Assembly: GCF_006345805.1 (NCBI RefSeq)
Contig: NC_043001.1
Coordinates: forward strand, 44,392,001-44,456,000
DNA length: 64,000 nt
DNA from: Octopus sinensis
Lineage: Eukaryota
Reading direction: 5' to 3'
Shown: piece by piece, positions 3,765-52,119 of the stretch
Position numbering within the stretch: the stretch's first letter is position 1
Layout: every line of letters begins with the position of its first letter
Position numbers and translations under genes: made by a program
The notes under the pieces: generated by a model
Seen by the model: the letters and a program-made list of their open reading frames with translations, nothing else
Databases searched by the model: none
Told to the model about the DNA's origin: nothing

Positions 3765-4348
3765 ACAGAATTCAATAAATTCAATCATATTTTTCATAAA
3801 TGGAAGAGATTAGATGTTAATATTGATTGAAATTATTTTTATTCATGTAGCCATACAATCATTTCATACAGAAAGACAATAAATTCATTTTAAGAATTTG
3901 GATTGTCAAAAGGTATTCGTCAATATCAAAACTATCTCTTAATAACGGAAACAAAAGTGGAAAATGCGGGCGGCCTAATTGTGGCACATGCCCCCACCTT
4001 TTGGAAGGTAAGAATTCTACTTCAAACAAGGTGAAATATTTAAGATAAAGTAAATTTCACTTGTGCCTCTGAAAACCTAATCTATGTTATTACCTGCTTA
4101 GGTTGCGAAAACCACTATATTGGAGAAACACGAATGTCCCTCAGACGAACAACGCTTCACAAAGAACAAATCCGCTTCCCACAATATAGACAGATACAGG
4201 TCAGTGAGCACGTAGATGTGCTAGGAAGCTTAAACCAAACTTTCTAATTTTCCCTTTTTATCAATGTTCCCAGAACACCTCAGTGCAGCAAGGACTAAAT
4301 AAAGCTGCAACTTTTATTAATAAATATCAACCACAACTTAATACATGA
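3765..4348 (+). pseudogene. Penelope-like element C-terminal relic: Cys-rich linker plus GIY-YIG endonuclease
   Basis: Hand translation gives GKCGRPNCGTCPHLL (from 3959), NFTCASENLIYVITCLGCENHYIGETRMSLRR (from 4053), then LHKEQIR, VSEH and FINKYQPQLNT*. Frameshifted, starts beside (TA)n. Confidence 0.85.
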
Positions 4349-8541: not shown

Positions 8542-9047
8542 AGACTTACAACTGTTTTTCTTCTGTTTTTTATAAGCGCCGAAATGTGTATAGAGATACA
8601 AATAAGATGATAATTTATTTTCCAACACCGAGATGCCGTTAGAACAGCTGACACATTGGGTGAATTACCCTTACTAAGCGAAAAGATTGGTCAAACAGCC
8701 AGAGTCTTAAGAGATATAGGCTCGAGTCCCATGGCTGTTTGTTGACAAATTATTGTATCTCTATACACATTTCGGCGCCTATATATAAATGAAAAACGTT
8801 AGCTTGTTTATATTTATATGCACGTGGTTGCACATTTAGCTTTTAAAAAAGCGTCTAAAAAACAGATTGATATGTCGGCGGGCAGTTTAGCTTAATGATA
8901 AAGCACTTGGCCGGAGTTTTTAAAAGACATGGGTTCGAGACCCATGGCTTTTGGTTGATAAATTTTTCCGCTTTGTAAGGGCAATTTACCCAATATCTCT
9001 GCTGCTCTAATGGCGTCTTTGCGTTCGAAAATAAATTATCATCTTAC
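8540..9047. repeat. Nested inverted-repeat element with tRNA-like (Pol III box) segment
   Basis: gcgccgaaatgtgtatagagataca (~8576) is inverted at ~8755-8779. ~8602-8690 is inverted at ~8960-9047. tagcttaatg and ggttcgagacc boxes lie at ~8888-8943. Confidence 0.6.
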
Positions 9048-22193: not shown

Positions 22194-22494
22194 TATACAT
22201 GAATATACATATATATATATACATTTAGCAATTAAGGACAACTACTTAATAAGGAAAACTTAACAAGAAATGTCAGGTAGATAGCGTAAAAACCTCAATA
22301 AGAGAAAAAATTTCGAAAATAATTATTTCTTATTGAACATATTAATTTATATATAGAGGGAGGGCATTATACATACATGCCAGGAGGCATTCTACATACA
22401 CGCCATACGCTAAGAGGGACAATCAGTCATTTCTACCAAAATATTACTAATCCCCCGAATGCATTTTTCAAAGAAAGACTTTAAAAATATATAT

Positions 22495-22542
22495 AGACCT
22501 GTATCACAGTGATTTCATACTTACGTAATCATCAGCCGGCCT
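22495..22542 (-). ncRNA. Minimal type I hammerhead ribozyme (array copy 1)
   Basis: Reverse complement of the 23173 motif, with one stem I mismatch. Confidence 0.7.
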
Positions 22543-22974
22543 GAATATACTATAAATAAACAACGACCCCGCTTCGCTTAAGCCGATCAGCTAACTGATC
22601 AACATCAACGAAGCACATGGTTGAATTTATATATACTATATCCGGATGAATGGCAAACTTTTACGAATTGCATTTCGGAGAGGACAAGTTTTTTCGGAAT
22701 AAAAATTTAGCAATTAAGGACAACTAATTAATAAGGAAAACTTAACAAGAAATTGTCAGGTAGATAGCGTAAAAACCTCATAAGAGAAAAAATTTCGAAA
22801 ATAATTAATTTCTTATTGAACATATTAATTTATATATAGAGGGGATTATACATACATGCCAGGAGGCATTCTACATACACGCCATACGCTAAGAGGGACA
22901 ATCAGTCATTTCTACCAAAAATATTACTAATCCACCGAATGCAATTTTTCAAAGAAAGACATTTAAAAATATAT

Positions 22975-23021
22975 AGACCTGTATCACAGTGATTTCATAC
23001 TTACGTAATCATCAGCAGCCT
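22975..23021 (-). ncRNA. Minimal type I hammerhead ribozyme (array copy 2)
   Basis: Same core, with a 1-nt deletion in stem I. Confidence 0.7.
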
Positions 23022-23172
23022 GAATATACTATAAATAAACAACGACCCCGCTTCGCTTAAGCCGATCAGCTAACTGATCAACATCAACGAAGCACATGGT
23101 TGAATTTATATATACTATATCCGGATGAATGGCAAACTTTTACGAATTGCATTGTTTATTTATAGTATATTC

Positions 23173-23220
23173 AGGCCTGCTGATGATTACGTAAGTATGA
23201 AATCACTGTGATACAGGTCT
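23173..23220 (+). ncRNA. Minimal type I hammerhead ribozyme (array copy 3)
   Basis: aggcctg-CTGATGA-t-tac-gtaa-gta-t-GAAA-tcac-t-gtga-TA-caggtct: 7-bp stem I, GNRA-capped stem II, palindromic stem III, AUA cleavage triplet. Confidence 0.82.
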
Positions 23221-23646
23221 ATATATTTTTAAATGTCTTTCTTTGAAAAATTGCATTCGGTGGGATTAGTAATATTTTTGGTAGAAATGACTGATTGTCC
23301 CTCTTAGCGTATGGCGTGTATGTAGAATGCCTCCTGGCATGTATGTATAATGCCTCTATATAAATTAATATGTTCAATAAGAAATAATTATTTTCGAATT
23401 TTTTCTCTTATGAGGTTTTTACCTATCTACCTGACAATTTCTTGTTAAGTTTTCCTTATTAAGTAGTTGTCCTTATTGCTAAATTTTTATTCCGAAAAAA
23501 CTTTTCCTCTCCCGAAATGCAATTCGTAAAGTTTGCCATTCATCCGGATATAGTATATATAAATTCAACCATGTGCTTCGTTGATGTTGATCAGTTAGCT
23601 GATCGGCTTAAGCGAAGCGGGGTCGTTGTTTTTTTTATAGTAATTC

Positions 23647-23693
23647 AGCCTGCTGATGATTACGTAAGTATGAAATCACTGTGATACAGGTCT
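23647..23693 (+). ncRNA. Minimal type I hammerhead ribozyme (array copy 4)
   Basis: gcctg-CTGATGA...GAAA-tcactgtga-TA-caggt. Confidence 0.78.
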
Positions 23694-24139
23694 ATATATT
23701 TTTAAATGTCTTTCTTTGAAAAATTGCATTCGGTGGGATTAGTAATTTTTGGTAGAAATGACTGATTGTCCCTCTTAGCGTATGGCGTGTATGTAGAATG
23801 CCTCCTGGCATGTATGTATAATGCCCTCTATATATAAATTATATATATATACATATATATATGAATATACACACATACACGCACACACACACGCACACAA
23901 ACAGGCACACACATACATACTCACACACACACATACACATACACACACACACAAACACACGCACACACACACACGCACGCACGCACACACACACAATGCA
24001 AAAAGGAATATGAAACAAAATTTTTTATGAAGACGCAAAAGAGAGGGAAAAGAGCAGACAAGGAACTTCCTCAGCTCAACAAAAAAAAAGACCAGAACCA
24101 CAACAACGACGACGGCGACAATGACAGGGATGATGGATG

Positions 24140-51252: not shown

Positions 51253-51294
<42 letters not shown>

Positions 51295-51296
<2 letters not shown>

Positions 51297-51785
51297 AAGA
51301 AGTAAATATATGGCACAACGAAGTACCGATATTTACTGGAAATAGCGAGCGTAATAATACGACGCTAATGTATAGCTTCACCGCGTATGTACTAGCAAAA
51401 ATGCGTGAGTGCAACAAACTTGAAAAAATTGTCTTACCTCCAGGGAGAACATCTGAAAGATGAAATGCCTAGAAAAGGTTAATGTGGGACCGGCGCCGGT
51501 TTCAGATTTTTCAAGATATGCCTGCCCACATATACTTGATCTATCTTCATCAGCCAAACATATACCACGACAACATTTCAGATGTTACCACATTAATGCC
51601 AATACACTCGACTGAAACGCCGAAACGCTAACAGAACGAAGTTTCAATAAATTAGTAATGCAATACTAGAGTATTGCTTTCCAGTAAAGAATAGCCCGTG
51701 AGGGGAAAATATACAAAGAAGTAAATATATGGCACAACGAAGTACCGATATTTACTGGAAATAGCGAACGTAATAATACGACGCT
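51295..51785 (-). mobile_element. 419-bp retrozyme-like monomer with 72-bp terminal direct redundancy
   Basis: 51295-51366 equals 51714-51785 (1 mismatch). Abuts (TA)n and contains an HHR. Confidence 0.8.
51482..51561 (-). ncRNA. Type I hammerhead ribozyme with extended stem II
   Basis: Minus strand atgtttgg-CTGATGA-agat.aga.tcaag.t.atatg[tgggcagg]catat.cttga.aaa.atct-GAAAccggcgccgGTC-ccacat. Canonical core, GUC site, perfect palindromic stem III. Confidence 0.82.
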
Positions 51786-52048
51786 CATGGGCCCGGTTTC
51801 CGGTTTCTATGGCGTATGTGTTGCCCCCAGCTGGACGGGACGCCAGTCCATCGCAGCGTTACTCAAGAAACAGGAAGAAAGAATGAGAGAAAGTTGGGGC
51901 GAAAGAGTACAACAGGGGTCGCCACTATCCCTTGCCGGAGCCTCGTGGAGCTTTAGAGGGCTTCGCTCAATAAACACACACAACGCCTGGTCTGGGAATC
52001 GAAACCGCGAGTCCGCCGCCCTAACCACTGGGCCATTGCGCCTCCGCG
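51786..52048 (-). mobile_element. tRNA-derived SINE family C (V-domain-like)
   Basis: Head ggaggcgcaatggcccagtggttaggg..gtttcgattccc. Contains ctgcgatggactggcgtcccgtccag..agaaaccgg. Confidence 0.65.
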
Positions 52049-52119
52049 GTGAATATTGTCTAACTTACGCAAATTACGCAAAAGTGAAAATAGTACTGAC
52101 ATCTCATTTTAATAGATAT

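Follow-up and report, generated by a model that had tools for sequence, protein, structure and literature searches.

In the genome of Octopus sinensis, positions 51295 to 51785 of the analyzed window (64,000 nucleotides of contig NC_043001.1) hold one truncated copy of a young, protein-free hammerhead repeat that is present in several hundred copies. With a probability of roughly 55%, we read this copy as a truncated member of a non-autonomous retrozyme family moved by the RT/GIY-YIG endonuclease of a Penelope-like element (PLE), with a circular RNA as the likely template. Judging from sequence comparison, mobilization of a retrozyme by a PLE is very probable. The single copy in the window is in itself ordinary; its structure is given below in window positions.

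51256..51294, strand not applicable: (TA)n microsatellite used as target, flanking the insertion at its primed end
51295..51785, minus (RNA sense): whole insertion, a single arm of 1.17 units begun at the first fixed start site, 51295
51295..51713, minus: full unit of this copy, 419 nt; 12 nt of the 431- to 432-nt family unit are absent after 51637
51477..51566, minus: type I hammerhead motif, from sequence, folds and covariation
51566-51554 with 51487-51477, minus: helix I
51553-51547, 51503-51500 and 51490-51488, minus: CUGAUGA box, GAAA and GUC
between 51488 and 51487, minus: predicted cut
51546-51504, minus: helix II, 43 nt (4 bp, 3x3 internal loop, 5 bp, bulge, 5-6 bp; fold z -3.4)
51489..51500: helix III, a 12-nt palindrome (monomer, 4 bp plus tetraloop; dimer, 12-bp duplex)
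51647..51713, minus: 67-nt "tail" bounded by the fixed start sites 51647 and 51714/51295; it lies inside this copy and at the end of one arm in other copies
51660..51785, minus: multibranch RNA fold predicted to surround the first start site, with an 11-bp closing stem (z -5.8 for 51660-51789)
51714..51785, minus: partial second unit, 72 nt with 1 mismatch to 51295-51366, ending by 5' truncation or deletion
51783..51789, strand not applicable: microhomology where the element joins a high-copy SINE-like repeat, from repeat comparison

The 419-bp period and the 72-nt repeat reported in the initial annotation were both recovered, with the sole mismatch at 51349. The next base past the repeat is unequal (A at 51367, C at 51786), and the neighboring repeat begins there. 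This neighbor, which we take to be a SINE on account of its tRNA-like head, spans ∼51783-52050 without its first ∼30 nt and meets the element in 7 nt of microhomology; either a template switch or a later deletion produced the join. Since the window copy breaks off at a microhomology with a high-copy repeat, its 72-nt length carries no meaning, and the description of these 72 nt as a defined terminal redundancy has to be abandoned: second units vary widely in length. Elsewhere in the window, a weak tRNA match at the Rfam gathering score (8881-8953, 29.8 bits) is possibly another SINE head. The unit (419-432 nt, GC 0.37-0.39) lacks an ORF, as had been claimed, the longest stop-to-stop frame in the tripled unit being 73 aa. 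With its single arm and one hammerhead, the window copy is predicted not to give a unit circle itself. The modeled structure at 51660-51785 may be a docking module for the enzyme.

A DNA search of the 2.7-Gb genome returned 1342 candidates; among the 40 candidates scored, the best 42 places were 91-100% identical over most of the query. The 22-mer at the fixed end has 306 exact matches in the genome and the hammerhead pattern has 261, while the reversed control gave 0 in each case. Closest copies have units of 431-432 nt, and those of other subfamilies measure 423-428 nt. Some copies form head-to-tail arrays of 2-3.2 units, 3.2 being the longest among those scored. The family thus combines a short, non-coding unit with GC under 50%, a conserved-core type I hammerhead in each unit, multiple genomic copies as monomers and as tandems with at least two hammerheads, and a predicted self-paired circular fold, all of which are properties by which retrozymes are recognized. 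No fixed terminal repeat was found among the mapped copies, and an RT plus GIY-YIG ORF is absent from the element. Assembled contigs of sequencing runs that we guessed to be RNA (6 of 14 runs marked "RNA?" and one unlabelled) cover the element at a level far below that of neighboring high-copy repeats, a coverage that speaks neither for nor against expression.

The ends of the insertions were mapped first in 109 loci, comprising 69 from the first 100 listed 22-mer matches and 40 from 82 matches to the tail start, and then in an extended set of 161 loci to which those listed by the hammerhead-pattern search had been added. Before counting, we removed loci fetched twice, six of seven near-identical copies of one duplicated block, and L014; the duplicated insertion L065 was left out of the arm statistics. 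Arms start at unit position 1 or 67 nt earlier, and the opposite end is variable. In the 109 loci there were 93 tail-start arms, 89 first-site arms and 15 other segments, and (TA)n-like DNA adjoined 176 of the 182 primed arm ends. Among the 161 loci, 91 were two-armed, and 89 of these had one arm per site; the other two had two first-site arms, and none had two tail-start arms. Choosing 40 loci by the tail-start pattern inflates the number of tail arms, yet it does not explain the complete lack of tail-tail loci. The remaining loci were scored as single-armed (65) or had no standard start (4). These are the ends of a Penelope-like "tail" signature, which has been reproduced in vitro (PMC11167929). 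Circular permutation of the ends, a check proposed in the initial annotation, was found not to be random: one end is fixed at one of two sites, and random permutation is thereby ruled out.

In 35 of 71 two-armed loci, each arm includes sequence that its partner lacks, so these pairs are not fold-back copies of one cDNA, and fold-back self-priming as the general cause of the inverted arms is excluded for them. Arm tips lie no more than 20 nt apart in 16 of the 71 loci, compared with 8.2 expected (p 0.002), and self-priming may account for a minority of loci. The ends of opposite arms are uncorrelated (rho 0.04), and the arms overlap by 1-6 nt at 36 of 64 junctions.

The hammerhead lies on the minus strand, which the initial annotation had left unspecified. 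Its account of a canonical core stands with respect to the conserved boxes and the GUC site and needs correction at the base of helix II: in place of the G10.1-C11.1 pair and ∼4-bp helix II of the canonical type, there is an A-U pair (in 15 of 16 sequences) and a helix of 43 nt. The internal loop that follows the first 4 bp of this helix seems to sit where loop 2 would be expected. The 12-nt palindrome was likewise found as described. Neither it nor the long stem is as distinctive as the initial annotation suggested: a palindrome in helix III is common among metazoan type I hammerheads, and a long helix II also occurs in other elements of these loci. Across subfamilies, helix III consists of 6-, 10- or 12-nt palindromes, and 12 loci carry a non-palindromic 12-nt hairpin. 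Subfamilies with the 6-nt form, modeled as 1 bp plus a palindromic loop, would be predicted to need a dimer. An obligate dimer for the family as a whole was considered and rejected; the sequence does not require it, as the non-palindromic loop is present in 12 loci and the most frequent 12-nt haplotypes can form 4 bp. For the window copy, the helix III duplex between two molecules has a predicted energy of -26.5 kcal/mol.

Of 97 segments, 88 retain an intact catalytic core. In an alignment of 16 subfamily representatives, pairing holds in 97.2% of cells, and the covariation score is higher than in 500/500 shuffles; these representatives were picked by hand, their kinship inflates the shuffle control, and the structure was drawn from the same sequences. 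Compensatory changes alter both sides of 4 of 28 pairs, 3 of them in the long helix II and 1 in helix III. The intact cores and the covariation of the helices indicate that the motif is under selection, and we regard self-cleavage as a putative activity of the family's hammerhead. Predicted circular folds were more stable than shuffles in 7/7 monomers (z -3.3 to -7.2, 25 shuffles each), the sense strand being more stable than the antisense strand.

These observations also bear on the reading of the window copy as a local 72-bp duplication that happens to contain a hammerhead-like motif. An Rfam search gave no hammerhead match at the gathering score nor at E values up to 10, and the isolated 104-nt motif folds like its shuffles (z -0.01), as chance resemblance would have it. 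That reading is nevertheless refuted by the hundreds of dispersed copies, the independent more-than-unit arms and the compensatory changes, and we give it a negligible probability. The initial annotation had itself named uniqueness of the repeat to this locus and stems without covariation as grounds for giving up its interpretation; the copy number and the covarying pairs show the opposite.

The ribozyme cut site, at unit position 194, is passed by 70 of the 71 arms that reach position 190, which indicates a circular or concatemeric template and excludes a cleaved linear monomer as the usual one. At the scissile bond itself, 134 of 139 segments show no gap and 5 show a gap, with no insertion in any. 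The second cut site is passed by 3 of 178 arms (109 loci); in the extended loci, none of the 7 arms reaching it stops there. That a more-than-unit insertion would come from circular or concatemeric RNA, as was initially proposed, is therefore borne out by this read-through and by the 26 of 178 arms exceeding one unit. The 72-nt length does not characterize the element, nor are its ends permuted at random.

Sequence polymorphism narrows the source of each insertion. Between opposite arms (22 loci), 18 of 262 polymorphic sites were discordant; between tandem units (7 loci), none of 100 was, compared with 47% between loci. This near-identity of haplotype in both arms and in tandem units points to one RNA or one source locus per insertion. 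Arms with unlike haplotypes do occur at some loci (4 of 12 sites in L046, 3 of 15 in L006). At L029:1506-2366, a pair of tandem units has 11 rare changes in common, among them a 3-nt deletion in the catalytic core; the third unit and the opposite arm lack these changes. At least some multimers are thus local duplications that arose after insertion, which weakens the result for tandem units. One haplotype per insertion, combined with read-through of the cut site, fits a circle and also an uncleaved multimer.

On these sequence patterns, we lean toward a circle as the template. There is a smaller yet substantial chance that the twin-primed PLE insertions were instead copied from uncleaved linear transcripts of 2- to 3-unit arrays, local duplication restoring array length and the hammerhead being weak or serving processing only. 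Such transcripts would agree with in vitro work in which unprocessed RNA was the dominant substrate and hammerhead cleavage was not needed (PMC11167929), with arrays of up to 3.2 units and the duplication in L029, and with the finding that just 7 of the 112 arms passing position 275 get to 620; moreover, the hammerhead fold of the window copy lies 3.1 kcal/mol above the predicted minimum. The selection apparent on the motif argues against them, as do the well-paired circle predicted for the whole unit and the accumulation of other animal retrozymes as circles described in the available text of PMC7229834. A mild excess of arm stops at positions 170-199 (10 of 80, p 0.11) could mean that the cut site is where some templates end. 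We also considered a stall after one turn and did not retain it: in the first 109 loci the rate of arm stops tripled beyond one unit (from 35 in 10283 nt to 34 in 3233 nt), but the rise was not seen again in 48 new loci (p 0.46), and the union of loci shows a weak effect (p 0.04).

Candidate partner enzymes are abundant in the genome. Of 5029 candidates, 150 were scored and 147 matched GIY-YIG, among them intact-looking RT plus GIY-YIG ORFs of 775-781 aa. One RT/GIY-YIG family has (TA)n at its primary end or after an optional ∼38-nt tail, the same design as in the retrozyme family. BLASTN and nhmmer comparisons with 50 GIY-YIG loci detected no significant sequence in common with the element. 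A young PLE-like family (L148:474-4175 and relatives L149-L151 and L153-L159) encodes RT plus GIY-YIG in a 781-aa ORF. Upstream of this ORF, and overlapping it, lies a 479-aa ORF without a clear family assignment, and a degenerate hammerhead-like motif is located near the 3' end of the PLE-like family. The window contains a decayed GIY-YIG remnant of a Penelope-like element at 3962-4345 (tblastn E 1e-18).

The unit might alternatively be the detached pseudo-LTR of an unsampled autonomous PLE, with most copies merely its 5'-truncated ends. The insertion anatomy does resemble that of PLE ends, and 24 of 57 Xenopus retrozyme families match known repeats, nearly all of them PLEs, at their termini, according to the accessible part of a recent preprint (bioRxiv 10.64898/2026.07.22.740005). 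We consider this origin improbable: long arms run on into another unit rather than into an ORF, PLE protein matches in the element's loci fall outside the insertions, and there is no DNA match to the 50 GIY-YIG loci (with 150 of 5029 candidates scored).

The window and the retrieved loci contain further hammerhead repeats. An unrelated 479- to 482-bp family at window positions 22223-23840 has a similar layout, with a (TA)n start, 1.9 tandem units and an inverted arm; its lack of similarity to the 419-nt element, already noted by eye, was corroborated by a best BLAST E value of 1.3. A second young family with a CCGAUGA-core hammerhead (L207-L225; 2485 candidates, 97-99% identical) also has a (TA)n target and an optional ∼55-nt tail, and in L212 it is joined to the 3' portion of an RT/GIY-YIG element. 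Unrelated hammerhead-like motifs with a long helix II occur at L148:5819, L150:6229 and 6729, L152:7516, and L164:1715 and 4967. At L183:1834-2100 and L063:1433-1900, the two arms start on different hammerhead repeat families. In L107:2705-3725, part of the 419-nt family alternates twice with 146-173 nt of another hammerhead repeat; the junction is identical both times, 6 nt past the other repeat's predicted cut site and at a near-identical hexamer. A chimeric circle, a repeated template jump or a local duplication are possible origins of this array. The chimeras in L063, L107 and L183 connect the 419-nt family with other hammerhead repeats, one of which is attached to a PLE 3' part in L212; these few loci suggest a common machinery and template switching. 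Arms from different subfamilies meet in a single insertion found in a block duplicated over several contigs (L006, L008-L010, L012, L013 and L021).

Under the preferred reading of a PLE-mobilized circular retrozyme, source loci with at least two hammerheads would be transcribed in the minus-strand sense, and the transcripts would self-cleave, as monomers or via a helix III dimer, and then be ligated into a circle of ∼430 nt. The PLE enzyme would cut both strands of a (TA)n tract, as PMC11167929 suggests and as the footprint seen here would reflect. cDNA would be primed from both DNA ends, one at each fixed RNA site, 67 nt apart. Each arm would extend variably, crossing the ribozyme cut site and in many cases exceeding one unit, before the two were joined head to head, mostly with a 1- to 6-nt overlap; the last two steps have left an observed footprint. 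More tentatively, a single dimeric Penelope-type enzyme may copy one retrozyme circle from two sites at once, with one active site per strand. If so, the 89/91 pairing and the common arm haplotype would give the first proof from a genome that an animal circular RNA retrotransposes by rolling-circle, twin-primed copying. The 6-, 10- and 12-nt helix III subfamilies would then constitute a natural series from dimer-only to monomer-active ribozymes.

The closest known systems are the metazoan non-LTR retrozymes, which were defined in PMC7229834, where circles are described in coral, mussel and axolotl, mussel units measure 350-390 bp and PLE partners are proposed, all as given in the available text. 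As far as that text and the accessible part of bioRxiv 10.64898/2026.07.22.740005 describe them, they share with our family a non-coding unit of a few hundred nucleotides, one type I hammerhead per unit, low GC, dispersed monomers with short tandems, a well-paired predicted circle and a proposed PLE partner. The element carries those features of the class for which its DNA gave a clear answer and, on this sequence evidence, adds a new family to the metazoan non-LTR retrozymes, for which the use of Penelope enzymes had been proposed before. It differs in that its ends are mapped (two fixed starts, (TA)n, paired inverted arms), which the available text of these reports does not include, in its 43-nt helix II with a basal A-U, and in having no pLTR homologue in 50 GIY-YIG loci. 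Within a mostly open-access literature, we found neither a cephalopod retrozyme nor mapped retrozyme insertion ends, although supplements to papers may list cephalopod families. The spread of animal retrozymes by circles and PLEs is itself a proposal (PMC7229834, PMC4209133), backed in vertebrates by co-occurrence and pLTR homology with PLEs (Li, Clavereau and Pollet, bioRxiv 10.64898/2026.07.22.740005); in the accessible part of that preprint, 8 of 9 predicted Xenopus retrozymes did not cleave in vitro.

Regarding the ribozyme, the consulted sections of Cervera and de la Pena (2014; PMC4209133) describe palindromic helix III as usual in metazoan type I hammerheads and propose circular templates. 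The dimer-type hammerheads of PLEs and amphibians reported there share the palindromic helix III. Unlike them, as far as those sections go, our family combines 6-, 10- and 12-nt forms of helix III, with 12 non-palindromic loci, and its helix II is far longer than the 7-8 bp reported.

In its insertions, the element resembles endonuclease-bearing PLEs, for which partial tandems, inverted copies and a one-sided tail are on record in the parts available of Craig et al. (2021) and Arkhipova et al. (2013; PMC3846280). Common to both are partial tandems, an inverted 5'-truncated copy, an optional tail on one end and microsatellite targets; the absence of an ORF and the tail of 67 nt, as against the 30-40 nt given there, set our element apart. 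Fold-back self-priming, as outlined in the available text of PMC3846280, cannot yield many of the two-armed copies seen here. The element thus inserts like a PLE without being one, with a partial tandem, an inverted arm, a one-sided tail and an AT-rich target.

The nearest biochemical parallel is PAc (Poseidon of Anolis; Frangieh et al. 2024, PMC11167929), whose protein in vitro cleaves AT-rich DNA on both strands and extends each of them. It initiates at two internal RNA sites, the spacer between them being equal to the tail, and has unprocessed RNA as its main substrate. Priming on both strands of AT-rich DNA, two internal starts, a tail equal to the spacer and read-through of the hammerhead site are shared with our family. 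In contrast, PAc is autonomous and shows no strand difference in start site, whereas 89/91 of our two-armed loci use different sites; PAc also starts without homology, whereas both sites here contain a short run of AU that matches the (TA)n target. This strict pairing of one arm per site is a constraint on the PLE mechanism that is absent from the in vitro work, and a young family with hundreds of mappable insertions offers the exact start sites, target and template length for in vitro PLE reconstitution.
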